A stretch of DNA of 64,000 nt from Fulvivirga sp. (GCA_965284555.1 OZ260091.1:1656139-1720138); one strand, 5' to 3'; shown: positions 28,093 through 59,729, numbered from the stretch's first letter. A program made the numbers and translations. Notes: generated from the letters alone by a model not told the origin.

Positions 28093-28106
28093 ATGATGAA
28101 CGTCAG
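28093..28106. promoter_or_regulatory. Crp/Fnr-type box upstream of ccoI (divergent from queE)
   Basis: atgat-gaac-gtcag. Confidence 0.65.
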
Positions 28107-28152
28107 TAATAGTAAAGGTGCTAAAGCGCAATTTTGTAGTTAAAATTATAGT

Positions 28153-30534
28153 GTGGAAGTAGAAAATCAAGTTTTGAATGAAACGCTTTGTTACCATTGC
28201 CATGAACCATTGGCAGGTAGCGAGTTGGTTTATGACAGCAAACAATTTTGTTGTCAGGGTTGTAAATCGGTATATGAGCTTTTTCAAGACTCTAATTTCC
28301 AGGATTTTTATGCTCAACGGTTCGACAACAGGAAGGCCGATGATTTTGCCTTGCTCGATGATAACAAAATTGCCCAATCTTACATCACTTTCAGTACGGA
28401 TGATTATACTCGCATTACGTTAAAATTGCCGAATATTCACTGTAGTTCTTGTATTTATGTGTTGGAAAATCTGCATCAAGTAGCACCGGGCATTATTAAA
28501 GTTACCACCGATTTTGTTAAAAAACAGGCCGATATTCTCTTTAAACCAAAAGAGTTGCCATTGAGTGAATTGTGCAGATTGCTTAATTCTATCGGATATC
28601 CACCTGATTTAAGCATTGAAAAAAAGGAATTTAAAAAACATGGACAAAGTAAGGCCTTGTCATTGAAAATTGGTGTGGCCGCCTTTTGTTTTGGTAATAT
28701 TATGCTACTTAGCTTTCCCGAGTATTTGGGTATTGATGAACATGAGTTTGCACAATTTTTTAGTTGGGTAAGTTTGGCATTGGCGCTCCCCGTACTGTTT
28801 TACTCAGCTACCGATTATTTTAAATCAGCTATGGCCGGATTAAAACATAGTTTTATCAATATTGACGTCCCAATAGTATTGGGAATAGTTGCACTTTTTT
28901 TCAGGAGTGCTTATGAAATAATAAGTCAGTCTGGTGCAGGATATTTGGATTCATTGGCAGGTTTGATTTTTTTCTTATTGATAGGGAAGTGGTTTCAAAG
29001 CAAAACTTATGAGAATATGTCTTTTGAACGGGACTATAAATCGTATTTCCCGCTATCAGTCTTAAAAATCAATAATGGTAAGGAGCATCCAGTTGCCATA
29101 AATACGCTTGAAAAGGGTGATGACATTATCATTAGAAATAATGAAATAATCCCTGCAGATGCCAAATTGAGGGGAACCAGCGCTCAAATTGACTATAGCT
29201 TTGTAACTGGTGAGCAAAAGCCCATAACAGTTAAGGAAGGGCAGTTGGTTTATGCAGGCGGACGCTTATTGGGTGAGCGCATTCAACTGCAAGTTGAGCA
29301 GGCTTCATCGCAAAGCTACCTTACTAGCTTGTGGAACAATCAAGTATTTAAAGAGGATAAAAATCCCTATAGTCAAGAGTTGACCAACAAAATAAGCAAG
29401 CACTTTACCATTGTCATTTTAATACTTGCCTTAGCCGGAGCAATATTTTGGGCATTTTATCAGCCGGATAAAATGTGGTTGGTACTCACTTCGGTATTGA
29501 TTATTGCCTGCCCTTGTGCTCTTGCATTATCAGCACCCTTTACCAATGGAAATGCCATTAGAATAATGGGGAAATATGGTTTTTATCTAAAAAAAGCGAG
29601 TATAGCTGAGAAAATAGCCAATATCGACACTATTGTTTTTGACAAGACCGGAACGATTACTTCATTGAAAAAGCAGGGTTTGGCCTTTTTTGGGGAAGCA
29701 CTGAGTAACGTAGAGCAAAAGGTAATTAAGAGTATGGCAGGTAACTCTACGCATCCATTGAGTAAATTGATATTTGAAAAATTAGATTTGGAAGGTGAAA
29801 TAATACCACTATCTAATTTTAAGGAGCATGTTGGAAAAGGACTATCAGCCGAATTTGAGGACATTATCTTTCAAGTTGGTTCACCAAAATGGCTGAATAT
29901 CAATACAGAAAATTTTGATTTGAATAGTTCAAGAGTTTATGTCAAAATTGGTGTTGAGGTAAAAGGTTATTTTGAAATTAAGCACCAATATAGGGCTGGG
30001 ATTGAAAATTTATTGAACAGCCTTGGTTCCAACTACAAGTTGCTGGTGGTATCTGGTGATAATGATTCAGAGTTAGGCGTATTGACAAAGATGTTTCCTT
30101 CAGGAACACAATTTTACTTTAACCAAAAACCGGATGATAAATTAGCCATTGTGAAACAATTGCAAGATAGAGGCGCTAAAGTGATGATGCTGGGAGATGG
30201 CTTAAATGATGCCGGAGCACTGCAGCAGAGTGATATTGGGGTGGCGGTAACAGAAAATATTTCTTCATTTTCACCCTCTTGCGATGCCATTTTGGAGGGT
30301 GAGCGTTTAACACAGCTTCATCACTTTTTGAAATTCTCTCAAAAGAGCAAATTCATTATCTATCAGAGTTTTGGCATTTCATTTTTATACAATGTGGTAG
30401 GCATTTCAATGGCGTTGTCAGGGCTTCTTACTCCAATATTTGCTGCTATTTTGATGCCTTTAAGTAGTATTTCTGTGGTGGCATTTACCACTTTAAAAGG
30501 CAATGCACTATCTTCAATATTAAACAAACAATAG
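28153..30534 (+). CDS. ccoI: Cu-translocating P1B-type ATPase for cbb3 oxidase assembly (CcoI/FixI)
   Basis: CYHC..FCCQGC and HCSSC metal sites, TGE, CPCAL, DKTGT, GDGLND; immediately followed by ccoS. Confidence 0.88.
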   Translation: MEVENQVLNETLCYHCHEPLAGSELVYDSKQFCCQGCKSVYELFQDSNFQDFYAQRFDNRKADDFALLDDNKIAQSYITFSTDDYTRITLKLPNIHCSSCIYVLENLHQVAPGIIKVTTDFVKKQADILFKPKELPLSELCRLLNSIGYPPDLSIEKKEFKKHGQSKALSLKIGVAAFCFGNIMLLSFPEYLGIDEHEFAQFFSWVSLALALPVLFYSATDYFKSAMAGLKHSFINIDVPIVLGIVALFFRSAYEIISQSGAGYLDSLAGLIFFLLIGKWFQSKTYENMSFERDYKSYFPLSVLKINNGKEHPVAINTLEKGDDIIIRNNEIIPADAKLRGTSAQIDYSFVTGEQKPITVKEGQLVYAGGRLLGERIQLQVEQASSQSYLTSLWNNQVFKEDKNPYSQELTNKISKHFTIVILILALAGAIFWAFYQPDKMWLVLTSVLIIACPCALALSAPFTNGNAIRIMGKYGFYLKKASIAEKIANIDTIVFDKTGTITSLKKQGLAFFGEALSNVEQKVIKSMAGNSTHPLSKLIFEKLDLEGEIIPLSNFKEHVGKGLSAEFEDIIFQVGSPKWLNINTENFDLNSSRVYVKIGVEVKGYFEIKHQYRAGIENLLNSLGSNYKLLVVSGDNDSELGVLTKMFPSGTQFYFNQKPDDKLAIVKQLQDRGAKVMMLGDGLNDAGALQQSDIGVAVTENISSFSPSCDAILEGERLTQLHHFLKFSQKSKFIIYQSFGISFLYNVVGISMALSGLLTPIFAAILMPLSSISVVAFTTLKGNALSSILNKQ

Positions 30535-30535
30535 C

Positions 30536-30757: not shown

Positions 30758-31291
30758 CTATTTTTTTCTTGCTGGGAATTTCCGCATGGCTTTTCTTATT
30801 CCCTTTTCCACTTCGGTGTGTGCTATGTCTGGAAATTGAGGGATGTATTTTTGAGTTACCGATCGCCAAATAATAGTACCTTTTTCTCTGTCGGCAACAT
30901 CGATAATCAAAGTTCCTTTTAAGAAGTGATAGTAAATATCCTCTTCTTTGGCATTTTCCCAGAGCGGAAGCGATTCTTCATGTACAAAGGTTGATAAGGC
31001 AGAATCCTTAGTGACTTGGATCTGAAAATTGAGCATTAAATCAGCGTTTTCATCGGTTTGGATATAACCCTTACGCTGCATTTCTACCGCCATTAGATTG
31101 ACAATTTCCTCTAAAATGGGCTCTGGATAAATATAATCAGGCCCCTCGAATGTTGGGGTGCAGCCATTAAGCCAACACCAAGTTTTGTATTCATCAAAAT
31201 TTACTTTGGGGTCGCTGCTCGATCTTACTTTTATTTCAGCGCATGACGATATAAGCGCCAGACAAATGGTTATAAGAAGATATCTCATCAC
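30758..31291 (-). CDS. DUF4136-like lipoprotein
   Basis: Lipobox ISSC; DPKVNFDEYKTW; MQRKGY; GTLIIDVADR..IIWRS; IRKAMRKFP. Confidence 0.75.
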   Translation of the reverse strand: MMRYLLITICLALISSCAEIKVRSSSDPKVNFDEYKTWCWLNGCTPTFEGPDYIYPEPILEEIVNLMAVEMQRKGYIQTDENADLMLNFQIQVTKDSALSTFVHEESLPLWENAKEEDIYYHFLKGTLIIDVADREKGTIIWRSVTQKYIPQFPDIAHTEVEKGIRKAMRKFPARKK

Positions 31292-31354
31292 TAATTTTTG
31301 TTTAAAGGTATTTCTTCTTTTTTGATAAATCCTTTAAATAAATCAATTATACAT

Positions 31355-31368
31355 CTGACAATAATCAA
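31355..31368. promoter_or_regulatory. Crp/Fnr-type box upstream of mlaE (divergent from DUF4136 gene)
   Basis: ctgac-aata-atcaa. Confidence 0.6.
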
Positions 31369-31415: not shown

Positions 31416-32192
31416 ATGTTCGGGACTACTTATAAAAATTTAAAGGCATTTTTACTCGAAACGGGTGACATCTCTTTATTTATAGGTCGGTTTTTTAAAG
31501 AGGGATTTAAACCGCCTTTTGAGCTTAAAGAGTTACTCAAGCAATGCTACATGGTAGGCAATAAATCACTGCCATTGGTGGCTACAACTGGTTTTATTAT
31601 GGGTTTGGTACTTACCATTCAGACAAGGCCAACTTTGGTTGAATTTGGTGCGGAGTCGTGGATTCCCTCTATGATTGGCATTGCTATAGTCCGTGAAATC
31701 GGACCTGTTATTACGGCATTGATGTGCGCAGGCAGGGTTGGGTCAAGTATTGGCGCAGAGCTGGGATCCATGAAAGTTACCGAGCAAATTGATGCTATGG
31801 AGGTGTCAGGAACCAATCCTTTTAAGTTTTTAGTGGTAACTAAAGTAGTAGCTTGCACGCTTATGTTACCGGTTTTAGTGGTTTTTTCGGATATCATTTC
31901 ACTTTTGGGCTCTTATTTGGTGGAAAACCTGAAGGGAGAGGTGAGTTGGGAGCTGTATTTTAGAAACGTTTTTGCCTTTTTAAAATTTAGCGACATTATG
32001 CCGGCTTTTATCAAATCGTATTTCTTTGGTTTTGTAATTGGCATTGTAGGTTGCTATAAAGGCTACAATTCCAAAAAGGGGACGGAAGGTGTAGGTAAAG
32101 CAGCCAATACTGCTGTGGTTTTAGCTTCAATGCTAGTGTTTGTGGTAGATTTTGTTGCGGTATTAATTACTGATATTTTCTATGATTTATAA
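31416..32192 (+). CDS. mlaE: MlaE-family ABC permease (MCE system)
   Basis: REIGPVITALMCAGRVGSSIGAELGSMKVTEQIDAMEV; GTEGVGKAANTAVV. Confidence 0.9.
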   Translation: MFGTTYKNLKAFLLETGDISLFIGRFFKEGFKPPFELKELLKQCYMVGNKSLPLVATTGFIMGLVLTIQTRPTLVEFGAESWIPSMIGIAIVREIGPVITALMCAGRVGSSIGAELGSMKVTEQIDAMEVSGTNPFKFLVVTKVVACTLMLPVLVVFSDIISLLGSYLVENLKGEVSWELYFRNVFAFLKFSDIMPAFIKSYFFGFVIGIVGCYKGYNSKKGTEGVGKAANTAVVLASMLVFVVDFVAVLITDIFYDL

Positions 32193-32953
32193 TGCAAAAG
32201 ACTAAAACGATAAATTATGACGCGCCACCCGTGGTGAAAATAGAACAGTTGCATAAGCGATTTGGCGATAATGTGGTTTTGAAAGGTTTTAATCTCACGC
32301 TGTACGAAGGTGAAAGTGTGGCTATTTTAGGCAAGTCGGGCTCAGGCAAATCAGTGTTGATCAAATGCCTTATTGGACTGATTCCGTATGATTCAGGTTC
32401 CATGTTAGTGCTTGGTAAAGAAGTGGCTGATTTAAATCAACAAGAGTTGGACAATTTGCGAACAGATATAGGATTTTTGTTTCAGGGTAGTGCCTTGTAT
32501 GACTCTATGACGGTACGTGAAAATTTAGAATTTCCACTCCGCAGGCACCGAGAAACACTAAAAAACGGACAAACTGTAAAGGAAAAAGTAAAACAAGTAT
32601 TGTCTAGTGTGGGTCTATCAAATACTGAAGACCTTATGCCGGAAGAGCTTTCTGGGGGGATGAAAAAGAGGATAGCACTGGCACGCACGCTTATTATTAG
32701 CCCAAAGTTGATATTGTATGACGAGCCTACAAGTGGGCTCGACCCAATAACCACCCGTGAAATAAGCAGGCTTATTTTGCAAATTCAGAAGGAGTACTTT
32801 GCGTCATCCATTGTAATTACTCATGATGTAGATTGTGCAAAAATGGTAGCCGATAGATTGATCATATTAAATAATGGAATAAACTATGCCGAAGGATCTT
32901 ATGAAGAACTTTTCAAATCTAAAGACCCGGTAGTGAGCGCATTTTTTGCTTAA
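32192..32953 (+). CDS. mlaF: MlaF-family ABC ATPase
   Basis: GKSGSGKS, FQGSALYDSMTV, LSGGMKKR, YDEPTSGLDP. Confidence 0.9.
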   Translation: MQKTKTINYDAPPVVKIEQLHKRFGDNVVLKGFNLTLYEGESVAILGKSGSGKSVLIKCLIGLIPYDSGSMLVLGKEVADLNQQELDNLRTDIGFLFQGSALYDSMTVRENLEFPLRRHRETLKNGQTVKEKVKQVLSSVGLSNTEDLMPEELSGGMKKRIALARTLIISPKLILYDEPTSGLDPITTREISRLILQIQKEYFASSIVITHDVDCAKMVADRLIILNNGINYAEGSYEELFKSKDPVVSAFFA

Positions 32954-32963
32954 AATTAAAGCT

Positions 32964-33917
32964 ATGGAACGAAGTACAAATTATAAAGTAAAGCTGGGTG
33001 TATTTGTGGTAGTAGGACTTGCATTATTCACTGTTGGCGTCTATATGGTAGGAAAGGAGCAAAATCTATTTAGCAGAAATATAGCGCTATATGCCAAATT
33101 TAAGCAGGTAAATGGCTTACAGTCGGGCAGTAATGTGCGTTTTTCTGGTATAAACGTTGGGGCAGTAAGCAATATTGAAATAATTGATGATTCAACTATT
33201 TTGGTATCCATGGTCATTAAAGAAAGTGTTCAGCAATTTATAAAATTGGATGCGGTAGCCTCTATTGGCACTGATGGTTTAATGGGTAATATGCTGGTGA
33301 ATATAAGCCCTGGGGGCAATCAAACCCAATCAATTGAAGATGGTGGGTATTTAAGAACTTATGAGAAAGTACTAACCGAAGACATCATTAATACACTCAA
33401 CAGCTCAAACGAAAATCTGGCGGTATTGATTGAAGAACTGCTAGAAATAGCTCAAGGAGTAAACAAAGGCAAAGGCACGGTTGGGGTTTTGATGAAAGAC
33501 AGTTTGGTAGCAAATGATCTGAGACATGCAGTTAAAAACCTGAATTATACTACCATCAAAGCCGTCACTATTATAGAAAAAATGAATACAATGATGGATG
33601 ATTGGCAAAAAGGGGATGGACTTGTAAATGCCCTAATGACCGATACAGCCTATGTAACTAAAATTCAACAAACCTTTGAAAGTCTAGAAAAAGCAAGTAG
33701 CGAAATTCAACAGACCTCAACTCAATTAAACACTATGCTCGAACAGAAGCATTCTGACAATGCCTTAAACACCGTTTTACGGGATAGTATTTTCAATGCC
33801 AACCTGCAAAAAACTATGGTTGAAATAAAAGATGGTGCCACCAAGTTTAATGAAAATATGGAAGCCTTGCGTACCAATTGGTTTTTTAAGAAATTTTTTA
33901 AGAAGAAGAATAAGTAG
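32964..33917 (+). CDS. mlaD: MlaD/MCE-domain protein with long helical tail
   Basis: N-terminal TM, GLQSGSNVRFSGINVGAV, TDGLMGNMLVNISPG, then ~170 aa of helical repeats (track start is TTG 32946). Confidence 0.88.
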   Translation: MERSTNYKVKLGVFVVVGLALFTVGVYMVGKEQNLFSRNIALYAKFKQVNGLQSGSNVRFSGINVGAVSNIEIIDDSTILVSMVIKESVQQFIKLDAVASIGTDGLMGNMLVNISPGGNQTQSIEDGGYLRTYEKVLTEDIINTLNSSNENLAVLIEELLEIAQGVNKGKGTVGVLMKDSLVANDLRHAVKNLNYTTIKAVTIIEKMNTMMDDWQKGDGLVNALMTDTAYVTKIQQTFESLEKASSEIQQTSTQLNTMLEQKHSDNALNTVLRDSIFNANLQKTMVEIKDGATKFNENMEALRTNWFFKKFFKKKNK

Positions 33918-33920
33918 AGG

Positions 33921-34025
33921 TGAGACATTAGATATTAGATATTAGACATTAGACATAAGATGTTAGACATTAGACTTAAGATGTTAGGCATAAGATGTTA
34001 GACATAAGATGTTAGACGTTAGACA
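33921..34025. repeat. Heptamer tandem array, 15 units, consensus TWAGAYR
   Basis: tgagaca ttagata ttagata ttagaca ttagaca taagatg ttagaca … ttagaca. Confidence 0.9.
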
Positions 34026-34114
34026 TGAGGGTTTAGAAATGATGGATACTTAAAAACTATTAACCCTTTTCGAATAAAGAATGACGAATATTAAATAATT
34101 ATCAACTATTAACA

Positions 34115-34184
34115 CAATAACCAATAACCAATAACCAACTACTAACTACCAACTACTAACTACCAACTACCAACTACTAACTAC
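34115..34184. repeat. Heptamer tandem array, 10 units, consensus YAAYWAC
   Basis: caataac x3, then alternating caactac/taactac x7. Confidence 0.9.
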
Positions 34185-34225
34185 CATCTATCCACTCCCT
34201 TGCTTGACCAACTTCAAAATCTATA

Positions 34226-34239
34226 CTGACTTTCGTCAG
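34226..34239. promoter_or_regulatory. Crp/Fnr-type box upstream of dinB-hemN
   Basis: Perfect palindrome ctgac-tttc-gtcag; a second 1-mismatch site ttgac-caac-ttcaa at 34204-34217; TAnnTTTG -7 element tacttttg at 34262-34269. Confidence 0.7.
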
Positions 34240-34322
34240 GTTTTTTGAGTAATTGCCAACCTACTTTTGAGAGAAATAAGCCATTTTAAGAATGGGTCTT
34301 TGTTTCATTTAAGAAATCGGGC

Positions 34323-34778
34323 ATGGAAAGTCAAACCACAAAACTGCTAAAACTCTGGACGGAAGCACGCACCAGATTTACCAATCAGTTGGTAAACCTT
34401 ACTGATGGCGATATGAAAAAGCGTTTGGCACCTGCCACCAATTCTGCTGGCTTTCTTATTCGGCATATTGGAGATGTAGAACTTCTATTTGCCAGAAATG
34501 TATTTGGCGCAACAGAAATTAAGGTCAGTGCCAAAACAGTAATTGATAAAAGAGATACTGGAGAGTGGACTAATTGTGCCGAACTGCTAAATTATGTTGA
34601 AGAAGCAGGCCATGTACTTCATGCAATTATCGAAAAACAAGCTTATGATGAATGGGATGCCTTAATAGAAACCAAAGAATTTGGCACAAAAACAAAGGCC
34701 GAAGCTTTAGGCAGAATTGTTTCGCACACCGCCTATCATGCCGGACAGTTAGCGCTAATACTCAAATACGGAAGTTGA
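34323..34778 (+). CDS. DinB/YfiT-superfamily protein
   Basis: 151 aa four-helix bundle; NSAGFLIRHIG and SHTAYHAGQL His triad. Confidence 0.82.
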   Translation: MESQTTKLLKLWTEARTRFTNQLVNLTDGDMKKRLAPATNSAGFLIRHIGDVELLFARNVFGATEIKVSAKTVIDKRDTGEWTNCAELLNYVEEAGHVLHAIIEKQAYDEWDALIETKEFGTKTKAEALGRIVSHTAYHAGQLALILKYGS

Positions 34779-34805
34779 TAAATTATATTCATAAACACAT
34801 TACAA

Positions 34806-36167
34806 ATGAAAATCCCCGAATCGCTCATACAAAAATATAATGTGCCAGCCCCACGCTATACCAGTTACCCAACGGTACCTTATTGGGAAGAGGAATATAT
34901 GAGTGAAACCAACTGGCTGTCTATAGTTAAGCAAACTTTTGATGAAACCAACGATACACAAGGTATAAGCTTATATATACATCTTCCGTATTGTGAGAGC
35001 CTGTGTACTTATTGCGCCTGCAACACTCGTATTACTAAAAACCATGCCGTTGAAGAAGACTATATCGAGGCTGTCTTAGCAGAATGGGATATTTATTGCG
35101 ACACTTTTGATAGAATTCCCTTGCTAAGAGAAGTGCACTTAGGAGGAGGAACCCCCACATTTTTCAGTCCGAAAAACCTGGCTATTTTAATGCAAGGTAT
35201 CATTGACAGAGCCATTTTGCACCCCATGTTTTTGTGCTCATTTGAAGGGCATCCAAACAATACTACCTATGAGCATTTAGTAGCACTATACAATGCGGGT
35301 GCGCGTAGGGTCAGCTATGGAGTACAAGATTTGGACTACACGGTACAAAAAACTATTAATCGTATCCAACCATTTGAAAATGTGTTGGCGGCTACAGAAA
35401 ATGCTCGTAAAATTGGTTACGAATCAGTGAATTTTGACTTGATATACGGACTGCCTTTCCAAACGGTAGAGAGTGTTAAAAAAACCATAAACACAATAAT
35501 TGGGCTAAAGCCGGAACGAATCGCATTTTACAGCTATGCACATGTGCCTTGGAAACGCCCAGGCCAAAGAGCTTATACAGAAGCCGATTTGCCCGATAAT
35601 GAATATAAGCGTCAACTTTATGAGCATGGTAAGGAGTTGCTTGCTGAAAATGGTTATACTGATATAGGTATGGATCATTTTGCATTGAATAACGATTTAC
35701 TTTACAAGGCCTATCAAACTAAAAAGATGCATCGCAATTTTATGGGTTATACCCATGCCACTACTGATTTGCTCATAGGTTTAGGTGCCTCTGCAGTTAG
35801 CGATGCAAAGTATGCCTATGCTCAAAATGCTAAGAAAGTTGAAGATTATAAGGCTTCAGTACTAACTGGCAATTTGGCACTAGAAAAGGGTCATTACCTT
35901 ACTGAAGAAGATTTAATAATACGCAGAGTGATATTAGATATAAGCTGCAATGGAGAGCTTTGCTGGAGTGAAACACCAGATTGGCTTACATTAAATATGC
36001 TCATACAACTCAACACAATGGATAAAGAAGGTCTAATTAAACTTTACCCTAATGGTTTCAGAGTTACTGAATTGGGTATGGCTTTTTTGCGTAATATATG
36101 TATGGTTTTTGATAAACGACTAAACGACCTACAGCAGGGCAAGCAGATGTTTAGCAAGGCGATATAG
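34806..36167 (+). CDS. hemN: Oxygen-independent coproporphyrinogen III oxidase
   Basis: PRYTSYPT, YIHLPYCESLCTYCAC, HLGGGTPT, GMDHFA and RNFMGY. Confidence 0.95.
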   Translation: MKIPESLIQKYNVPAPRYTSYPTVPYWEEEYMSETNWLSIVKQTFDETNDTQGISLYIHLPYCESLCTYCACNTRITKNHAVEEDYIEAVLAEWDIYCDTFDRIPLLREVHLGGGTPTFFSPKNLAILMQGIIDRAILHPMFLCSFEGHPNNTTYEHLVALYNAGARRVSYGVQDLDYTVQKTINRIQPFENVLAATENARKIGYESVNFDLIYGLPFQTVESVKKTINTIIGLKPERIAFYSYAHVPWKRPGQRAYTEADLPDNEYKRQLYEHGKELLAENGYTDIGMDHFALNNDLLYKAYQTKKMHRNFMGYTHATTDLLIGLGASAVSDAKYAYAQNAKKVEDYKASVLTGNLALEKGHYLTEEDLIIRRVILDISCNGELCWSETPDWLTLNMLIQLNTMDKEGLIKLYPNGFRVTELGMAFLRNICMVFDKRLNDLQQGKQMFSKAI

Positions 36168-36173
36168 GTAATT

Positions 36174-36201
36174 GAAAGTTCAAAGTTCAAAGTTTAAAGT
36201 T
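36174..36201. repeat. Heptamer tandem repeat (nAAAGTT)x4
   Basis: gaaagtt caaagtt caaagtt taaagtt, followed by taaccat taactaa units. Confidence 0.8.
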
Positions 36202-36234
36202 TAACCATTAACTAATAACCCTTAATCAAAAGCA

Positions 36235-36831
36235 GTGATGATCCCTGAAGAAATATTGAAAGAATATGGGGCGCAAATTCGCTTTTATAGCCGCGATGAG
36301 TTGTTGTTTCATCAGAGTACGAAGGCACATTATTACTTTCAGGTCAAATCTGGAGAGATAAAAATGGCACATTATAATAGCGATGGCCAAGAGTTTATAC
36401 AAGGTATATTTTCAGAAGGGCAAAGTTTTGGTGAGCCTGCTTTGTTTGGAGATTTTCCATATCCTTGTGGCGCAGTAGCCACACAGTCATCTGAGGTTTA
36501 TAAATTACCAGCCATTAGCTTTTTTAAGCTGCTAGAAGAGAACTTTGAAATTCACAAAAAATTTAACAAGGAACTTTCAAAGAGACTGCGCTATAAAGGT
36601 GTTTTACTCAATGAAATTTCATCCTACCCACCTTCACACAGGATCGAAACTGTACTCAAATATATTAGGAGTAGATATGGTGCTAAAGATGAAAATTTTG
36701 AAGTGCCATTTACCCGACAGCAGATTGCCGATATGACTGGGCTAAGAGTGGAAACTGTAATTAAAACCATCAAAAAAATGGCTCTTGACGAACAACTTCG
36801 TATCGAAAATCACAAGGTTATTCTAAATTAA
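36235..36831 (+). CDS. Crp/Fnr-family transcriptional regulator (DNR/NnrR-like, no FNR cysteines)
   Basis: cNMP-type beta-barrel (GQSFGEPALF..YPCGA) and HTH TRQQIADMTGLRVETVIK. Confidence 0.88.
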   Translation: MMIPEEILKEYGAQIRFYSRDELLFHQSTKAHYYFQVKSGEIKMAHYNSDGQEFIQGIFSEGQSFGEPALFGDFPYPCGAVATQSSEVYKLPAISFFKLLEENFEIHKKFNKELSKRLRYKGVLLNEISSYPPSHRIETVLKYIRSRYGAKDENFEVPFTRQQIADMTGLRVETVIKTIKKMALDEQLRIENHKVILN

Positions 36832-36939: not shown

Positions 36940-36953
36940 ATGATTTGAATCAT
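36940..36953. promoter_or_regulatory. Crp/Fnr-type box upstream of ric
   Basis: atgat-ttga-atcat. Confidence 0.7.
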
Positions 36954-37008: not shown

Positions 37009-37722
37009 ATGGAAAATCTGAAAGAACAAAAAGTAGGAGAGCTGGTAGCGGAAAACTATCAGTATGCCGATGTATTTAAAAAGTATGATATTGATTTTTG
37101 TTGTGGTGGTGGTGTCACGATTGGCGCTACTTGCTTGCTAAAGAATATAGATTTGAATCAACTTGAGAAGGAGCTAAGTCTTGTTAAACAGCAGCAACCT
37201 GTTGTAGATAATCCCGCCTCTTGGCCAATTAGTAAGCTTATTTCGCACATTGTCAATCATCATCATCATTACGTGCGCGAAAATATGCCCTATATTATAG
37301 CATATGCCGATAAGGTAGCCAAAGTACATGGACTAAACCACCCAGAAGTAATTGAAATTAGTAGGTTGGTAAATGAACTTCAAAGCGAACTTTTTATGCA
37401 CATGCATAAAGAAGAGGTGGTGCTTTTTCCATTTATCAATCAACTTCAGGCAAATAAAACAATTAGCGGTAATCCATTTTCTTCTATCAAAAGCCCTATA
37501 GAAGTAATGCTTTTAGAGCATGATTTAGCAGGAGATATATTAAAAGAGGTTCGCAACTTAAGTGCTAATTATACACCACCTAATGATGCCTGTACAACCT
37601 ATAAAGTACTCTTTGATAAACTCAAAAACTTCGAAGAGGATCTTCATCGTCATATACATTTAGAGAATAATATTCTGTTTTTAAAGGCCATTGAATTGGA
37701 AAGAAAAATGTATAATAATTGA
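37009..37722 (+). CDS. ric: Iron-sulfur cluster repair di-iron protein (Ric/YtfE/ScdA)
   Basis: FKKYDIDFCCGGG, HHHYVRE, HMHKEEVVLFP, EHD and HIHLENNILF (track start is GTG 36973). Confidence 0.93.
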   Translation: MENLKEQKVGELVAENYQYADVFKKYDIDFCCGGGVTIGATCLLKNIDLNQLEKELSLVKQQQPVVDNPASWPISKLISHIVNHHHHYVRENMPYIIAYADKVAKVHGLNHPEVIEISRLVNELQSELFMHMHKEEVVLFPFINQLQANKTISGNPFSSIKSPIEVMLLEHDLAGDILKEVRNLSANYTPPNDACTTYKVLFDKLKNFEEDLHRHIHLENNILFLKAIELERKMYNN

Positions 37723-37732
37723 CAAAAATCAA
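37719..37732. promoter_or_regulatory. Crp/Fnr-type box upstream of the cytochrome c-fasciclin-nosZ operon
   Basis: ttgac-aaaa-atcaa, 1 base from the FNR consensus TTGAT-N4-ATCAA; degenerate repeat ctgac-aaaa-attat at 37741-37754. Confidence 0.7.
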
Positions 37733-37809
37733 GTTTTAATCTGACAAAAATTATTCTATTTAAGAAACTAAAATTGTAAAATTTGTATCAACATCAAAAC
37801 CCAAATCAT

Positions 37810-38289: not shown

Positions 38290-38298
38290 GATAAAGAG

Positions 38299-46006: not shown

Positions 46007-46020
46007 CTGATTATTATCAG
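46007..46020. promoter_or_regulatory. Crp/Fnr-type box upstream of ccoNO
   Basis: g-ctgat-tatt-atcag-c; degenerate second site ctaac-ggca-atcat at 46029-46042. Confidence 0.72.
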
Positions 46021-46106
46021 CTTTCTGTCTAACGGCAATCATAATCCACCTAATGATGGGTGTTTACCTTCGCTTTTAATTATTATAAATGACAACACGC
46101 TAACTT

Positions 46107-50781: not shown

Positions 50782-50800
50782 AAGTTGAAAGTTGAAAGTT
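50780..50800. repeat. Heptamer tandem repeat (GAAAGTT)x3
   Basis: gaaagtt x3 at the ccoG stop; partly complementary aaactt-type units follow at ~50820-50850. Confidence 0.65.
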
Positions 50801-50861
50801 TAATCTTCATTATGGAGTTAAACTTCTAACCAAAAACTTAAACCTTTGAACCAATAGAAAA

Positions 50862-51287: not shown

Positions 51288-51290
51288 CCA

Positions 51291-53363: not shown

Positions 53364-53475
53364 TATATCCAATGCTCAATTGTTTTATAAAAATAATATA
53401 ATATAAAAAAATTAATATAATGATATAAAAGATATTGAATGACAGTTTTTTAGTTTCTGAAAATCAGCTTTTAAC

Positions 53476-53489
53476 CTGATAAGGGTCAT
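53476..53489. promoter_or_regulatory. Crp/Fnr-type box upstream of yceI-barrel operon
   Basis: ctgat-aagg-gtcat. Confidence 0.65.
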
Positions 53490-53540
53490 AAAATACCTTC
53501 CAATAGACCCATAATATTGTGTAGCCAAACAAAGAAAGTT

Positions 53541-54107
53541 ATGAAAAAGCTAACCTTAATATTCTTAATCATTAGTGCCACGGTACAAACTACCATGGCT
53601 CAATCTTATCAACTAGATTCAAAAAACTCTACGCTTGAAGTACTAGGTACTTCAACGCTTCACGATTGGGAAATTGTGGCTGAAGAGTTGGCAGGTAATG
53701 CCACCATAACTAAAGCCGAAGAAGCTCTTTCCATTGACAAGCTCAACTTTGAAGTAAATGTAAAGGGACTAAAAAGTGGAAAGAGTGCGATGGATAACAA
53801 CACCTATGAAGCACTAAAAAGTAAAAGCTTTCCCAAAATTACTTATGTGCTTACCAAAGTGCTTTCTGCCAACAAAGTAGGAGCTACTTACAATTTGGAA
53901 ACTACGGGAAAACTCACTATTGCTGGTTATACTAAAACAATGAATTTGCCAGTAAAAGCAGAGGTAATGGGTAATCAGGTGGTTTTTACAGGCAAGGTCA
54001 CCTTCAATATGACAGATTTTAAAGTTGATCCACCTACAGCTCTATTGGGAACAGTAAAAACAGGTGATGAAATTACAATTCAATTCAAAACAAAATTCAT
54101 TCAATAA
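53541..54107 (+). CDS. YceI-family lipid/polyisoprenoid-binding periplasmic protein
   Basis: Signal peptide; GTSTLHDW, LKSGKSAMDNNTYEAL, GKLTIAG and MTDFKVDPP (track start is TTG 53517). Confidence 0.88.
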   Translation: MKKLTLIFLIISATVQTTMAQSYQLDSKNSTLEVLGTSTLHDWEIVAEELAGNATITKAEEALSIDKLNFEVNVKGLKSGKSAMDNNTYEALKSKSFPKITYVLTKVLSANKVGATYNLETTGKLTIAGYTKTMNLPVKAEVMGNQVVFTGKVTFNMTDFKVDPPTALLGTVKTGDEITIQFKTKFIQ

Positions 54108-54128: not shown

Positions 54129-55412
54129 ATGAAAACTTCATTAAAAATCGGAATCGCTGCTATATTGCTGGGCACAGCACTTAGTGGATATGCTCAAGAA
54201 AGAAGAGCTTTACAATACGACAGAATGCCAGGTAAAGATGGTATTAATGTATTCGAAACTTCAAAAGAAGATACCGTTGGATATGACGGATTAAGAGTGA
54301 GAGTGGGTGGTGATTTTGCCATGCAGTTTCAAGGTATCACCCAAGGAAATGATTTAGGAAGCTTGGCCAAACTAGGCAAAAACTTAAACTTACCAACAGC
54401 CAATTTGAATATTGATGTGCAGTTAGAAGATGGTCTTAAAATGCACTTACGTACCTACTTGTCTGCCAGACACCACGAAGAATCTTGGGTAAAAGGCGGT
54501 CACATTCAAATGGATAAGTTAGACTTTATTAAACCAGGGTTATTGGCAGGCTTTATGGAAATAGCCACCATAAGAGTTGGTTTAGATGAGTTTAATTACG
54601 GTGACGCACACTTTAGAAGAACTGATAACGCCCGTGCTATTTACAATCCTTTTGTAGCTAACTATATCATGGATGCCTTCTCTACAGAGGCATTTGCTGA
54701 AATTAACTTACAAAAAAATGGACTTTTGGCTGTGTTAGGAGTAAGTAATGGTAAACTCAACCAAAACGTGGTGGTTAACGACAATACCGATAACAAGGTA
54801 TCTTTCTTTGGTAAACTTGGTATCGATAAAAAGTTAGATGATGACACTAGAGTAAGACTTACCGGATCTTGGTACATCAACAAAGGTACTACTACAGGTA
54901 CTTGGTTATATGGTGGCGACCGAGGTGGATCTAGATACTATGGAGTACTGCATACAAGAGATGAAATTGCCGCTGGTACTGCTAGTGACTTTGAAGGTAG
55001 ATTAAACGCACGCTTTACAGAAATCACCGCCATTCAAATCAACCCATTCATTCAAAAAGGTGGACTTGAGTTCTTCGGTATCTACGAAGTGGCCTCTGGT
55101 AGTGCTGAAGGCAATGACGGTAAATATACACAATTGGCTGGTGAGGTGCTCTACAGATTTGGAGGCTGGGATCAGTTCTTTGCAGGTACAAGATACAACA
55201 CTGTAAAAGGTGCCCCAGTTGATGGCGCTCCTGACCGTGAAATTCAACGCTTCAACATTGGTGGTGGTATGTTCTTAACCAAAAATGTAATGATGAAAAT
55301 GGAGTATGTAAGCCAAAAATATGAAGGTGATGGATGGAATGGTGTATCTGCCGGTAAATATGTTGGCGCGAGTTTTGAAGGAATCAACATAGAAGCAGTA
55401 ATAGGTTTCTAA
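54129..55412 (+). CDS. Uncharacterised outer-membrane beta-barrel protein
   Basis: Signal peptide (…SGYAQ), alternating amphipathic beta strands, BAM-type C-terminus INIEAVIGF; 427 aa, too short for a TonB-dependent receptor. Confidence 0.75.
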   Translation: MKTSLKIGIAAILLGTALSGYAQERRALQYDRMPGKDGINVFETSKEDTVGYDGLRVRVGGDFAMQFQGITQGNDLGSLAKLGKNLNLPTANLNIDVQLEDGLKMHLRTYLSARHHEESWVKGGHIQMDKLDFIKPGLLAGFMEIATIRVGLDEFNYGDAHFRRTDNARAIYNPFVANYIMDAFSTEAFAEINLQKNGLLAVLGVSNGKLNQNVVVNDNTDNKVSFFGKLGIDKKLDDDTRVRLTGSWYINKGTTTGTWLYGGDRGGSRYYGVLHTRDEIAAGTASDFEGRLNARFTEITAIQINPFIQKGGLEFFGIYEVASGSAEGNDGKYTQLAGEVLYRFGGWDQFFAGTRYNTVKGAPVDGAPDREIQRFNIGGGMFLTKNVMMKMEYVSQKYEGDGWNGVSAGKYVGASFEGINIEAVIGF

Positions 55413-55493: not shown

Positions 55494-55808
55494 TTTGTAA
55501 TTGTCATGTCCGTAAATCAAGTTACACACAATGTGAAGGTTTATTCTATACAGAAAAGTGCCTTTATCAATTTCTTGATAGCCTGGTAGGAATCATTAAT
55601 GATATATGTACAACTCTCCGGAGCAGGCTTATCAGTCATTTTGTATTCAGAAATTTTTTATGTCTTTAGGCAAAGCCCATTTGCTCCGTAGTTTTAAGGG
55701 TATTCCAACCATGTTGTTAAACCGGACAAAAATCAGGTTTTAGACCATCAAATATCATCCATTTCCTTTCAATCTTTTAGCAATTTTAGTTAACAAAACA
55801 GCAAGGTC

Positions 55809-56612
55809 ATGGCACTACACGCAAGTAAATTTCACAGGCCAATGGCTCTCAGGGTAGTAGAGCATAAGCAGCCTAAACAAAAGTTGGTAAAATTTTGGGA
55901 TGAGGCCAAGCTCTTTAATGACCTCAACGCCATAAAAATTGCAAAGAGAAAGGCGGCCGTAGCCTGGGCTCCCACTATTATGAGTATAGGTGTTTTCTTA
56001 AGTTTAGCATTTGTAGTGTTAATATTTGAATGGCGTACTTATGAGAAGGCACCCATTGTTAACCTAATGCAAACAAGTATAATAGAAGAAGATTTTTTGG
56101 ATATACCTCCAACACAACAACCACCACCAGAAGTAAAAGTTCTCCAACAACCTAATATTGTTGAAGTTAAAGATGTAGAGGAGATTATAGAGGAAATAAA
56201 AGTCGACTTTGACCTAGAAATAACTGAAGACGCAATTATTGAAATGCAAGAGGTTATCGACCAAGAAAAGCCTGAAGAAGAGGCTGCTGATGAAGTTTTT
56301 ACCATTGTAGAAGTGGCTCCTGCACCTAAGAATGGTCTGCAAAATTTCTTTTCATACATATACCAAAACATCAATTACCCACGCAAAGCCATCAATGCCC
56401 AAGTACAAGGTAAAGTCTTTGTTCAGTTTGTTGTAAACGCAGACGGTACACTGGTAGATTTTGAAGTGGTGAAGGGTATTGGTATGGGCTGCGATGAAGA
56501 GGCCGTGAGAGTACTTCAAAGTGCACCTGCATGGAATCCAGGCAAGCAACGTGGTAAACCAGTGCGGGTCCGCATGATTTTACCAATAAACTTTATTATT
56601 CGTGAGAAGTAA
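55809..56612 (+). CDS. tonB: Energy transducer TonB
   Basis: TM ending IFEW, Pro-rich PPTQQPPP spacer, C-domain YPRKAINAQVQGKVFVQFVV..WNPGKQRGKPVRV; degenerate box cggac-aaaa-atcag at 55723-55736. Confidence 0.88.
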   Translation: MALHASKFHRPMALRVVEHKQPKQKLVKFWDEAKLFNDLNAIKIAKRKAAVAWAPTIMSIGVFLSLAFVVLIFEWRTYEKAPIVNLMQTSIIEEDFLDIPPTQQPPPEVKVLQQPNIVEVKDVEEIIEEIKVDFDLEITEDAIIEMQEVIDQEKPEEEAADEVFTIVEVAPAPKNGLQNFFSYIYQNINYPRKAINAQVQGKVFVQFVVNADGTLVDFEVVKGIGMGCDEEAVRVLQSAPAWNPGKQRGKPVRVRMILPINFIIREK

Positions 56613-56682: not shown

Positions 56683-56712
56683 GCAGATAGCATCTTGGCT
56701 ATCTGCTTTTTA
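56683..56712. terminator. Bidirectional terminator
   Basis: gcagatagc / gctatctgc followed by tttt, between convergent tonB and yceI2. Confidence 0.7.
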
Positions 56713-57291
56713 TTTCATACTAATTTTTAGATTTAACTCAACGAAAATCGTTTCGTTCACTTTAATCAAACCCATCATAGCGGTAGGAGGGTCAATTCCA
56801 AATTCTTTAATATCAAATTCTGATTTGAAATTTATATGAAATGATTTAGCATCGATTGGTAAAACTTCATACTTCAAAAAATACTTGTTGGTTTTACCGG
56901 CTATGGTAATCAGGGTTTCAGCTCTAGAATCATTAAAATCGATGGGATCGAAATTTTCAATATTTAAAAGTTGAAAATGCATAAAAGGAAATTTTTCACC
57001 TTTCAGCGTTTTTTTCATATCGCGAGTAATATAATTACTCTCACAATCAAATTTTTCTACGGTAAGGCTAAATTTTGTATTGTCAAAAGATATAAAACCA
57101 TCTTTTGCTTCATAACAAACACTCAACTGTTCTCCACAAAAGCCTTCTACTATTCTACAGTCAAATTCATTTACGTTGGATACTCCACTTAACCTAAAGC
57201 TACTTTCTGGCTCAATAATTACCATTGTGGTAGTTTGGGCAAAAGCAATACTTGGCACTAGTAATGAGAGAGAAACAAGGATTGATTTCAT
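56710..57291 (-). CDS. Second YceI-family protein (two conserved-looking Cys)
   Basis: Signal peptide; GVSNVNEFDC, FDCESNYITRDMKKTL, ITIAG and FGIDPPTAMMGLIKV. Confidence 0.8.
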   Translation of the reverse strand: MKSILVSLSLLVPSIAFAQTTTMVIIEPESSFRLSGVSNVNEFDCRIVEGFCGEQLSVCYEAKDGFISFDNTKFSLTVEKFDCESNYITRDMKKTLKGEKFPFMHFQLLNIENFDPIDFNDSRAETLITIAGKTNKYFLKYEVLPIDAKSFHINFKSEFDIKEFGIDPPTAMMGLIKVNETIFVELNLKISMK

Positions 57292-57343
57292 AATATTTGG
57301 TCGTTAAATCAACCAAATTTGACACTTATAAGTTCAAATAAAT

Positions 57344-57357
57344 ATGACGGCAATCAG
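57344..57357. promoter_or_regulatory. Crp/Fnr-type box upstream of yceI2
   Basis: atgac-ggca-atcag, 53 nt before the minus-strand ATG. Confidence 0.65.
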
Positions 57358-57379
57358 TGTATTCTCTGATAGAAATAAG

Positions 57380-58453
57380 TTAACGAGCAAAATGCCACTT
57401 TTGTATTTTTTTGAGCTTCTCCAAGTCTTTAATCACTATTTTGCCCCCATTTGACTCAATGATATTTTCATCTTTTAAATCTGATAACACTCTAATGACC
57501 GATTCGGTAGCTGTCCCTACCAAGTTCGACAGATCATCCCTAGATACTTTTATGCCATTAAGATCAGATTCTTTTTCTTTAAATTTTTCGTAAATAGTAA
57601 GCAAAGCCCCCGCTGTTCTTTGCCTTACAGAATTGTAAGCCAAATCAATTAGTGCTTGTTCTTTTTCTTCAATATTATTAGATAGTAGCTGAATAAATTT
57701 TTTGGCCACCTCCCTGTTAGAGTAAAGCAACTCGAAGAAGTCAATTTTAGGTATTTGAATTATATGGGTGTCTTCTATGGCTTCTGCAGAGTCTAAATGT
57801 TCTGTTTCTTTTAGTAAGGCCTCATATCCAAAATATTCTCCATTAGTGTATATACCCGTTATCAGCTCCTTTCCGTCTTCATTGGTTTTTATGGTTTTTA
57901 CCTTCCCCTTTTCAACCAAATAAAGGTGATTGGCATAATCTCCTTCTCTAAATATTTCATTTTTCTTTTTGAATAACCGAGAGCGGTGGCCTGAATTTAG
58001 ACTCTCCAGATTGTGGAGTTTTTGCACATCGGTGATAAAATTATTCAATCCGTCAGAATCATTTTGATAATCCTTTTTTAAGGCATCAACCTTTCTTAGT
58101 CGCGATTCAATAGCATCTAAAAGCTCTGTATCATCAAATGGCTTTGTTAAATAATCATCAGCACCAAGAGCCATACCCTTGCGCATATCCGAGCGTTCAG
58201 CCTTAGCCGTAAGAAAAATAAAGGGAATTGTAGCAGTTGATTCTTTTTTTGATAGGATATGTAATACTCCATAGCCGTCAAGCTCAGGCATCATAATATC
58301 ACAAATAATTAAATCAGGATTGGCTGACATGGCCATTTCAACTCCCTTTTTGCCATTCTCAGCCAAAATAGGCTCATAGTCGGCCAGGGTCAAAATTTCA
58401 CCTATATTCTCCCTAATTTCTGTGTTATCTTCAATAATTAGTACTTTTCTCAT
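57380..58453 (-). CDS. Hybrid response regulator: REC + cNMP-binding + Crp HTH
   Basis: IIEDN, LIICDIMMP (phospho-Asp), LTKPF; FREGDYANHLY..GEYFG; HTH SRDDLSNLVGTATESVIR. Confidence 0.9.
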   Translation of the reverse strand: MRKVLIIEDNTEIRENIGEILTLADYEPILAENGKKGVEMAMSANPDLIICDIMMPELDGYGVLHILSKKESTATIPFIFLTAKAERSDMRKGMALGADDYLTKPFDDTELLDAIESRLRKVDALKKDYQNDSDGLNNFITDVQKLHNLESLNSGHRSRLFKKKNEIFREGDYANHLYLVEKGKVKTIKTNEDGKELITGIYTNGEYFGYEALLKETEHLDSAEAIEDTHIIQIPKIDFFELLYSNREVAKKFIQLLSNNIEEKEQALIDLAYNSVRQRTAGALLTIYEKFKEKESDLNGIKVSRDDLSNLVGTATESVIRVLSDLKDENIIESNGGKIVIKDLEKLKKIQKWHFAR

Positions 58454-59703
58454 AATGGTAATGTCACAATAAAGGTGGTGCCTTCATTAACTTTACTGAT
58501 AAAATTAATAGACCCACTTAGCATTTCAATATATTTTTTCACAATATTTAAACCCAGACCAGTTCCTTGAATATTGGTAGCGTTTTTTGCTCTAAAAAAA
58601 CGTTCGAAGAGGTGCTTTTGCTCTTGCTCCGGTATTCCCATTCCTTTATCAATGATTTCGAAAACGAGTTTGTGATTATCAGCCTTTAAATTAAACGTGA
58701 TTGTTTTATTCTCATCAGAATATTTAATGGCATTGGACATTAAATTGATAATAATATTTTTGAGTAGCTTGTTATCAGATTTAATCATCAACGACTCTAT
58801 ATTTTTGGAGAATTGAATTTTTTGGCCACTTTTCAAGAGAGGTTCCATTTCACCCATCACAGTTTTGGCAAGCTCCACAACTTCAAATTCACACGTTGTC
58901 AATTCTATTTTACCTTCTTCAAGTTTTGCCAATGAAAGAAAATCATTCAAAATGTTATTTAAGTTGCTAATAGAAGATTTTATTTTTTCAACGTGGGAGA
59001 GTCTTTTTTCAGTTGTTCCCGGCTCATTGTATTTAGCAATCAGCGAAGCTGAAGATAAAATTGTACTTAATGGAGTTCTAAACTCATGACTAGCCATGGA
59101 GACAAATCGCGATTTTAACTCATTGAGCTCTCGTTCTTTTTCTAAGGCTATGCGGGCATCCTCTTCGGCCTTTTTTCTTACTTCAACTTGCTCATTAAGG
59201 TCAATATTGGCCTTTTCTAATTGAGCAATGGTTTTATCTAATTCTTTTGTTCTCTCGCTTACCCTGTTTTCCAATTCGGTAGCATATACAATTAACTGTT
59301 CTTCGCTTTTGCGTAAGGCTTCTTCAATCAACTTTCTTTCCGAAATGTTGATGATAAAAGCTACCGTATGATATTTGCCATTAAGAATTGCCTGGTTTAA
59401 ACTTACCTCTACCGGAAATTCTTCACCACTTTTTTTAACAGCCAATAAATCACGGCCTTTCCCCATCACTCTGGGGTGTGGGTTTTTATGATAATTAGCC
59501 CTATGATGAACATGAATTTTGCGTAAGGGAGTGGGCACCAGCATATCAATAGAAACTCCATTCATTTCTTCATCTTCATAACCAAAGAGCTTTTTAGCAG
59601 ATTTATTGGCCAGTACAATTAGCCCAATATCATCTACAACCAAAATTCCTTCTTCACAGGCTTCAAAAATGGCTTCGTAAGTAGGGGTGTTAGATGCTGT
59701 CAT
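58450..59703 (-). CDS. Cytoplasmic PAS histidine kinase with a FixL-like heme-PAS domain
   Basis: LVPTPLRKIH..Y..PRVMGKGRDLLAVKKSGEEFPVEVSL; ASHEFRTPL; NLMSNAIKYS, DKGMGI and GTGLGL; no TM segments. Confidence 0.88.
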   Translation of the reverse strand: MTASNTPTYEAIFEACEEGILVVDDIGLIVLANKSAKKLFGYEDEEMNGVSIDMLVPTPLRKIHVHHRANYHKNPHPRVMGKGRDLLAVKKSGEEFPVEVSLNQAILNGKYHTVAFIINISERKLIEEALRKSEEQLIVYATELENRVSERTKELDKTIAQLEKANIDLNEQVEVRKKAEEDARIALEKERELNELKSRFVSMASHEFRTPLSTILSSASLIAKYNEPGTTEKRLSHVEKIKSSISNLNNILNDFLSLAKLEEGKIELTTCEFEVVELAKTVMGEMEPLLKSGQKIQFSKNIESLMIKSDNKLLKNIIINLMSNAIKYSDENKTITFNLKADNHKLVFEIIDKGMGIPEQEQKHLFERFFRAKNATNIQGTGLGLNIVKKYIEMLSGSINFISKVNEGTTFIVTLPL

Positions 59704-59715
59704 GTTGCTAAAATA

Positions 59716-59729
59716 ATGATAAAAATCAG
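59716..59729. promoter_or_regulatory. Crp/Fnr-type box between divergent kinase and USP genes
   Basis: atgat-aaaa-atcag. Confidence 0.65.

Follow-up and report, generated by a model that had tools for sequence, protein, structure and literature searches.

Paired Crp/Fnr-type operators and a candidate kinase–receiver-Crp pair in a probable low-oxygen regulon of a marine Bacteroidota bacterium

Regulons of the FixK/FNR kind contain the genes for cbb3 oxidase, fixGHIS, hemN and nos, as described in PMC5582078 and PMC6710368, and the latter places a further regulator, NnrR, after FixK2 in the Bradyrhizobium hierarchy. Here we analyse a window of 64,000 nucleotides (nt) from Fulvivirga sp. (GCA_965284555.1, OZ260091.1:1656139-1720138; positions are counted from its first letter), in which nine palindromes of the form TGAY-N4-RTCA lie between 28093 and 59729 in front of cbb3, hemN, nos and other genes. 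The host genome is complete, with 4.28 Mb and 38% G+C (window, 1,656,139-1,720,138), and its proteins have their nearest named relatives in Fulvivirga species (Cytophagales, Bacteroidota). An earlier note on this DNA had seen in these boxes the best candidate for an undescribed system in the window; our analysis points instead to a low-oxygen regulon of the FixK/FNR type whose regulator and operator are unusual. We consider it likely, judging from sequence, that this regulon is run in a marine Bacteroidota bacterium by an uncharacterised pair, a PAS-domain kinase and a hybrid in which a receiver (REC) is fused to a Crp/Fnr-type protein (REC-Crp). It is a familiar kind of regulon with unfamiliar parts: the fused receiver-Crp, a paired operator with 22-bp spacing, the lack of an outer T/A, and a DosR-like set of universal stress protein (USP) and Hsp20 genes.

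The FixL–FixJ–FixK2(–NnrR) cascade of Bradyrhizobium and Sinorhizobium resembles this locus in its FixL-type heme-PAS kinase, its Crp/Fnr module and its TGA-N6-TCA box at class II distance. The likeness extends to targets (cbb3 fixNOQP/fixGHIS, hemN and nos) and to a second Crp/Fnr protein downstream (PMC5582078, PMC6710368). The FixJ-type partner, a receiver joined to a LuxR/GerE helix-turn-helix (HTH), is absent here; instead the receiver is fused to the Crp/Fnr module, reducing three proteins to two. Unlike the FixK box TTGA-N6-TCAA, the boxes do not conserve the outer T/A and form an operator of two copies spaced by 22 bp; the promoters are of the Bacteroidota -7/-33 type, and many USP genes, Hsp20, MlaEFD and YceI also belong to the regulon. 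FNR and ANR of Gammaproteobacteria share the box core, the class II placement and the control of cbb3 oxidase and hemN, but the N-terminal Cys cluster is lacking here, and oxygen (O2) would be sensed by a separate kinase rather than by an iron-sulfur cluster in the regulator.

Two further systems invite comparison. In Mycobacterium tuberculosis, the heme kinases DosS and DosT and the response regulator DosR (DevR) control a hypoxia set rich in USP and alpha-crystallin/Hsp20 genes; DosR has a LuxR/NarL-type output and DosS/T carry GAF domains. The sensor and DNA-binding parts at our locus are not homologous to these, and the likeness is functional only, in the USP/Hsp20 gene set. Class III tandem-site promoters of E. 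coli CRP, like the promoters here, have two dimer sites on one helix face, one of them at the class II position. In the E. coli cases compared, the upstream CRP site lies 30 or more bp away, whereas the spacing here is fixed at 22 bp, so that two dimers would abut.

The window holds 14 exact matches to TGAY-N4-RTCA, against 4.15 ± 2.23 in shuffled sequence, and none of 100 shuffles reached 14. Nine of the matches, exactly those claimed before, are intergenic, with 12-nt cores starting at 28094, 31356, 34227, 36941, 37720, 46008, 53477, 57345 and 59717, one base past each coordinate quoted in the earlier note. The remaining five (5513, 32428, 45670, 60803 and 62665) lie within coding sequence with neither partner box nor promoter element; they are chance matches, in about the expected number. 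At the genome background rate, the 2587 intergenic bases of 28093-59729 would hold 0.35 boxes, close to the rough earlier estimate of about 0.2, and they hold nine (Poisson 1.4e-10); the motif is thus not equally frequent genome-wide, and the TGA-N6-TCA palindrome core is over-represented in promoters.

The boxes had been related to the FNR/FixK consensus TTGAT-N4-ATCAA, which does not describe them. The strict form TTGAY-N4-RTCAA has three matches in the window, two of them coding, and the 14-mer fits only one of the nine sites. Among 112 boxes the base before TGA is A in 42, C in 34, T in 27 and G in 9, so the flanking T is not conserved; the strict FNR consensus was rejected as the motif since the outer T is not part of it. 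A perfect FNR 14-mer, TTGATGTTTATCAA, does occur at 45669-45682, in the 3' end of a 384-aa gene and 437 nt before ccoNO. It is probably a chance match, because it has neither a partner box nor a -7 element at the expected offsets.

We next consider the arrangement of the boxes. One-mismatch boxes are present at 34205, 37742, 46030 and 55724, the four places reported earlier, and additionally at 28072 and 57367, with two-mismatch boxes at 31334, 53455 and 59739. The copies at 28072, 57367, 31334, 53455 and 59739 are each exactly 22 bp from a perfect box. The single palindrome had been taken as the functional unit, with three of the partners listed and their fixed spacing overlooked; the unit appears instead to be a pair 22 bp apart. 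Eight of ten window promoters are paired; of the other two, ric has one box only, and the one-mismatch box of tonB is poorly matched by its partner. Of the 71 perfect boxes in intergenic DNA of the genome, 20 lie exactly 22 bp from a partner (≤1 mismatch), compared with 0 of 342 coding boxes, and intergenic pairs with a summed mismatch of ≤2 number 27 at spacing 22 bp against 0-6 at the other spacings from 14 to 33. The same spacing stands out in 80 REC-Crp ortholog loci from other families (77 pairs, against 3-11 at other spacings). Congener genomes each have 6-32 pairs (≤1 mismatch), where a control with the pattern reversed gives 0-2.

The pairs are also in phase with a promoter element. 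In ten paired promoters the -7 element TAnnTTTG (≤1 mismatch) ends 36.5 nt downstream of the proximal box centre, and among intergenic perfect boxes in general the commonest distances to the -7 element are 36.5 (12 boxes) and 58.5 (11), with 5 or fewer elsewhere; coding boxes give no peak. The Bacteroidota -7 element ends about 5-6 nt before the transcription start, and because of this the box centres would lie near about -41.5 and -63.5, assuming the usual -7 position. The predicted geometry is that of the class II position of CRP/FNR-type activators with a second site one box-length upstream, the proximal box reaching into the region of the -33 element. Between divergent genes, several pairs have a -7 element at 36.5 nt in both directions; one pair can therefore serve two promoters.

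Conservation follows position rather than sequence. In syntenic regions of nine Fulvivirga congeners, compared through orthologs of a 198-aa Crp protein that are 51-78% identical, box-to-start distances are near-constant at ccoI/radical-SAM, DUF4136/hemN, ric, cytochrome c/nos, ccoNO, both yceI genes, tonB and kinase/usp, and the four spacer bases and the flanks vary among genomes. The footprinting in relatives that had been proposed as a check thus finds the boxes kept at orthologous promoters while their spacers change. Taken with the pairing and phasing, these results make it very probable that a regulon of the Crp/Fnr type is truly operated through these boxes.

The extent is larger than the 32-kb unit first proposed: the genome has 71 intergenic perfect boxes against 32 expected from composition, and a second dense island lies at 1.340-1.374 Mb (G000:C1:1340000-1376700; loci L001 and L002) with 12 intergenic boxes, mostly in 22-bp pairs. 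The predicted regulon is genome-wide, with about 28 operators, and the 32-kb stretch is one of its two islands; no motif differences between the islands are evident in spacer or flanks. Boxes of the second island precede LOG, CDP-alcohol transferase, SDR, phosphoenolpyruvate (PEP) synthase-USP-DUF2267-AI-2E, a 231-aa Crp gene followed by DUF302, DUF6799, three USP genes, VIT1 and a P-type ATPase; for four of the proteins encoded behind these boxes Pfam gives no match. Other pairs, scattered over the genome, stand before another three USP genes, Hsp20, globin, TerB, DUF6544 and an SQR/NDH-2-like flavoprotein with a ROK kinase.

A candidate binder is encoded among the operators themselves. The 357-aa REC-cNMP-HTH_Crp hybrid response regulator (57380-58453, minus strand) has receiver residues D9, D52, T82 and K104, closest to OmpR/PhoB-type receivers, and its C-terminal two thirds align over their full length to solved Crp/Fnr proteins including FNR, CRP and FixK2. 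This part comprises a cNMP-binding-like domain and a Crp-type HTH with the recognition-helix Glu and Arg; when aligned to CRP, the helix TATESVIRVL keeps the equivalents of E181 and R185 and has Thr in place of R180, which fits a TGA core without the TGTGA extension. Against the NCBIfam CRP model the protein scores 86.7 bits and does not reach the cut-off of 266; by this score, by the lack of R180 and by an inspection of the nucleotide-pocket residues by eye, it does not classify as a cAMP receptor protein. Canonical FNR was rejected as the regulator, as none of the genome's 12 small Crp-like proteins has the Cys cluster of FNR (N-terminal Cys-X2-Cys-X5-Cys with a central Cys, for [4Fe-4S]); REC-Crp and its 198-aa paralog have one Cys each.

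The distribution of pairs follows that of the hybrid. REC-Crp is present in 23 of 24 congeners, and the genome without it (G001, 99% complete) has 2 pairs compared with 6-32 in the others. Eight genomes from other families of the order with REC-Crp have 6, 0, 2, 7, 3, 8, 1 and 4 pairs, and eight without it have 1, 0, 0, 0, 0, 1, 1 and 0. A conserved pair lies beside the REC-Crp operon in 53 of 80 distant loci, and the widest-conserved pair (..RTCAa-N9-cTGATTTTTGTCAgg) is immediately upstream of the kinase gene in distant families. In 19-34 of these 80 loci, genes for cco assembly are found no more than 4 kb from REC-Crp. From these associations and the recognition helix, we favour REC-Crp as the probable main binder of the paired boxes. 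Proteins of this architecture are numerous, with at least 7993 clusters (7993 of 8000 scored candidates at E ≤ 1e-30), annotated only as 'response regulator' or 'CRP-like cAMP-binding protein', and our literature searches found no publication that describes, in Bacteroidota, a regulator of the REC-Crp type or boxes in pairs.

The likely partner is a soluble PAS-HisKA-HATPase kinase (58450-59703, minus strand), whose gene overlaps the start of the REC-Crp gene; 76 of 80 distant loci have it upstream of REC-Crp and in the same orientation. It has one PAS domain (residues 8-104) and an H-box His at 206. The PAS domain aligns without gaps to the heme-PAS domains of FixL (1dp6) and DosP; its H64 falls in register with the proximal His and its R84, 20 residues later, with the FG-loop Arg; matches to solved structures range from E 4e-15 to 1e-12, FixL and DosP standing at 2e-13. 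The best structural match is 10jx, a 'multi-sensor signal transduction histidine kinase' (E 4e-15), rather than FixL, and this entry shares an RxxHxxHRAxY segment with the PAS domain. Oxygen sensing by the kinase is a well-motivated prediction, and low oxygen is probably the signal of the regulon.

These observations suggest the following course of events. The soluble FixL-like heme-PAS kinase would sense a fall in O2 and phosphorylate Asp52 of REC-Crp, in the receiver that precedes its HTH and its domain resembling a Crp/Fnr sensor. The activated hybrid would bind the two TGAY-N4-RTCA palindromes, which lie 22 bp apart centre to centre. Given the geometry of the promoters, it would act as a class II/III activator, taking over from the -33 element in bringing in RNA polymerase. 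Predicted targets in the window are ccoI and radical-SAM; DUF4136 and mlaEFD; dinB-hemN-crp198; cytochrome c-fasciclin-nosZLDFY; ccoNO-P-G-H; two YceI operons; tonB; and USP. Elsewhere they would include at least six USP genes, Hsp20, globin, PEP synthase, LOG, SDR, VIT1 and a P-type ATPase. In a second tier, the 198-aa Crp, itself a target, may act on the TATGAY-N4-RTCATA box of ric.

Several points weigh against this account. The genomes compared are kin and not independent, which makes the link between pairs and REC-Crp a correlation, and one genome (G029) has REC-Crp with 0 pairs at ≤1 mismatch. Only some 40% of the paired promoters have a -7 element (≤1 mismatch) where the offset predicts it, genes were called with a crude longest-open-reading-frame (ORF) caller, and heme binding by the PAS domain is putative, deduced from alignment. 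Moreover, the recognition helices are nearly identical across three proteins (TAKETAIRLL in the 231-aa and RVETVIKTI in the 198-aa paralog), and the 231-aa protein could bind some or all of the paired sites. The four congeners that carry it have 18-32 pairs and are among the six highest pair counts of the 24, G002 and G005 without it having 22 each.

It is conceivable, though unlikely in our judgement, that the stand-alone 231-aa and/or 198-aa Crp proteins are the main binders, that REC-Crp serves its own neighbourhood only, and that the cluster consists of two or three overlapping regulons whose box cores are near-identical and which answer to different signals. The 12 boxes of the second island surround the 231-aa gene, and the single-box class at ric co-occurs with the 198-aa paralog. 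However, congeners lacking both paralogs still have 6-26 pairs, G032 and G033 with a 231-aa-like protein but no REC-Crp have 0-1, and the widest-conserved pair adjoins the kinase/REC-Crp operon in distant families. The 198-aa paralog occurs in 10 of 24 congeners and the 231-aa paralog in 4 of 24; the former was rejected as a master regulator, as the 14 of 24 congeners without it keep paired boxes. The earlier claim of one regulon is thus not clearly borne out, and more than one regulator appears to be involved: ric has a distinct box that co-occurs with the 198-aa Crp, and the 231-aa protein in the second island is a third paralog.

The ric promoter illustrates such a subordinate circuit. The 198-aa Crp (36235..36831, plus strand; cNMP_binding and HTH_Crp_2) is the last gene product of the hemN operon. 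Across congeners the 198-aa gene co-occurs with an adjacent ric gene, and in G017 and G002 the promoter of the 198-aa gene itself bears paired boxes, so the protein appears to be a target of the paired operator. The single box before ric/scdA is an extended palindrome, aTATGATTTGAATCATAa (36941..36952, plus strand), and the form TATGAY-N4-RTCATA recurs at 9 of 10 other ric homologs of at least 50% identity, 8 of these 9 adjoining crp198; weaker ric homologs have no box, nor does the stronger homolog G005:C51 (50% identity). A repressor role for the ric box, which lies 26.5 nt from the longest-ORF start at GTG 36973, was rejected: the true start is likely ATG 37009, and the last base of the promoter TTTG, 36983, is 36.5 nt from the centre of the box. 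The gene product (plus strand) scores above the RIC/ScdA cut-off. We conclude that the 198-aa Crp is probably a second-tier regulator acting on this box and, because ric is its target, would guess at nitric oxide (NO) or nitrosative stress as its signal. Two ric orthologs beside the 198-aa Crp, L136 (G003) and L143 (G016), have one and two in-frame stops, respectively, and may be decaying with their boxes intact. The NO arm of the regulon as first proposed is limited to ric. No nirK, nirS or norB was found in the whole genome, and a denitrification/NO context was rejected on that ground.

Whichever protein binds, the operators could in principle repress, with the regulator on the promoters in air and off at low oxygen, or the reverse, but we think this very improbable. 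One fact that counts against activation is the strong box of the kinase promoter, which lies 7-50 nt from the start codon (19.5 nt here); such a position would fit repression, or a box that serves the divergent gene. The -7 element of this kinase-side pair faces the divergent USP-side gene, away from the kinase, in 37 of 40 cases. A proximal box over the -33 region could also block polymerase. The fixed offsets of 36.5 and 58.5 nt to the -7 element, however, match the positions of CRP/FNR-type activators, and a repressor would not need such exact phasing. Moreover, wherever the control of cbb3, hemN and nos by Crp/Fnr proteins has been studied, it is activation (PMC5582078, PMC6710368, PMC3541799). 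It is hardly credible that the matches have no regulatory role and merely reflect AT-rich intergenic DNA or a dispersed repeat: although the core has only eight fixed or two-fold positions, the intergenic DNA of the genome is 68% A+T and the five coding matches in the window are chance, the excess over shuffles, composition and genome background, the exact 22-bp pairing, the phasing with the -7 element and the retention of position with no retention of spacer sequence in orthologous promoters all speak against it.

Turning to the individual operators, the gene labels given earlier were upheld by Pfam and NCBIfam profile searches. The paired operator at 28072..28105, TGAGTTGAATCA (one mismatch) with the perfect TGATGAACGTCA, lies between the radical-SAM gene (27274-28020, minus strand) and the divergent gene for a ccoI-type P-type ATPase (28153-30534, plus; Pfam/NCBIfam). 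A -7-like CAATTTTG follows at 28129-28136, and the operator is kept in G015 and G004 at equal distances. A two-mismatch box and the perfect TGACAATAATCA (31334..31367) are placed between DUF4136 (30758-31291, minus) and mlaEFD (31416-33917, plus; Pfam/NCBIfam), with a -7-like TACCTTTA at 31303-31310 on the DUF4136 side; the intergenic pair of DUF4136/hemN is kept in five congeners. Before the dinB-hemN-crp198 operon (34323-36831, plus), which encodes a DinB_2 protein and a HemN above the TIGR00538 equivalog cut-off, the pair at 34205..34238 (plus) consists of TGACCAACTTCA (one mismatch) and the perfect TGACTTTCGTCA; a perfect -7 element, TACTTTTG, at 34262-34269 stands 36.5 nt from the proximal box centre.

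The genes for cytochrome c, fasciclin, nosZ, nosL/D/F/Y and the 384-aa protein (37783-45893, plus) follow a pair at 37720..37753 (plus), the perfect TGACAAAAATCA with TGACAAAAATTA (one mismatch). Six of eight congeners keep a box upstream of the cytochrome c gene at a distance of 41-62 nt, and in G005 and G016 it is one of a pair; the copy of G004, at -41.5, has one mismatch, and G017 has a perfect box at -21.5. The operator of ccoNO-ccoP-ccoG-fixH-dsbD2 (46107-51989, possibly through 53297, plus; ccoNO fused, DsbD_2), at 46008..46041 (plus), combines the perfect TGATTATTATCA with TAACGGCAATCA (one mismatch), and a -7-like TACCTTCG is found at 46065-46072; the same pair, down to the TAAY variant of its proximal box, stands at -95/-73 in G003, G020 and G004.

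At 53455..53488 (plus), a two-mismatch box and the perfect TGATAAGGGTCA precede the first YceI gene (53517-54107, plus) and the gene for a 427-aa protein (54129-55412); the box is kept at -34.5/-35.5 in G003 and G004. The predicted -7 element of this promoter (window 53512-53519) overlaps TTG 53517, and that longest-ORF start is probably wrong. The TonB_C gene (55809-56612, plus) has the one-mismatch box GGACAAAAATCA (55724..55735, plus), which is a perfect box at the orthologous promoters of G003 and G004. The second YceI gene (56710-57291, minus) is preceded by the perfect TGACGGCAATCA and TGATAGAAATAA (one mismatch) at 57345..57378 (minus), kept in G004, with a -7-like CAAATTTG at 57314-57321, 36.5 nt from the proximal box centre. 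The last pair, at 59717..59750, joins the perfect TGATAAAAATCA to a two-mismatch box between the kinase/REC-Crp operon and the divergent USP gene (59800-60228, plus); it is kept in G003 and G002 and across Bacteroidota families.

The earlier note had further proposed that the regulon joins cbb3, hemN and nos to genes not usually linked to them. This was borne out for MlaEFD, two YceI proteins, TonB and USP, and failed for DinB. Close mlaE orthologs (64-78% identity) at other loci of congeners carry boxes in seven of eight cases, mostly pairs, at -46 to -82, and MlaEFD is on this ground a predicted conserved member; more distant Mla paralogs have no boxes. YceI, TonB and USP are likewise predicted conserved members, because the yceI, tonB and usp boxes are conserved in congeners; at least 35 of 80 distant loci have a usp gene facing away from the kinase operon. 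Four dinB orthologs elsewhere have no promoter-proximal box, and congeners have the paired operator directly in front of hemN; DinB was rejected as a conserved member and is probably a local hitch-hiker inserted between the operator and hemN. In nine congeners mlaEFD-dinB is missing from this place, and DUF4136 and hemN are divergent around one shared paired operator. In our window (31416-34778) an operator flanks each side of the inserted mlaEFD-dinB block.

The literature searched gave no account of how aerobic Bacteroidota sense O2 and induce cbb3 oxidase and clade II N2O reductase. Non-denitrifying, nosZ-only Bacteroidota are under trial as farmland sinks for nitrous oxide (N2O), and their switch from O2 to N2O is described as regulated and bet-hedging, with no named regulator (PMC11168931). 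The present organism looks like such a nosZ-only N2O reducer, because its genome encodes no nirK, nirS or norB; its heme-copper oxidase subunit I genes are two only, aa3-type at 692477 and ccoN. Our analysis offers a candidate circuit in which a kinase and a hybrid regulator would act through a 34-bp operator on about 28 target promoters. It links envelope genes of the MlaEFD, YceI and TonB types to low-oxygen physiology, and supplies an operator rule (a 22-bp pair, 36.5 nt from the -7 element) usable for regulon prediction in other Bacteroidota genomes. The chances seem evenly balanced that this pathway is common to aerobic Bacteroidota: a FixL-like heme kinase would signal to a receiver-Crp hybrid, which would bind 34-bp operators at about -41.5/-63.5 as two abutting dimers, perhaps bridged by their receivers, and control a hypoxia regulon of cbb3, clade II nosZ, USP/Hsp20 and envelope lipid transport, making it the main N2O-consumption switch in non-denitrifiers.

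Among the other genes of the window are an acetyl-CoA hydrolase (Pfam/NCBIfam) and a type IX secretion system (T9SS) sorting domain at 63212, the latter consistent with Bacteroidota. Three proteins encoded within the regulon, of 189 aa (40926-41495), 384 aa (44739-45893) and 427 aa (54129-55412), match no Pfam or NCBIfam family; they are kept in the nos and yceI operons of congeners at 35-81% identity.

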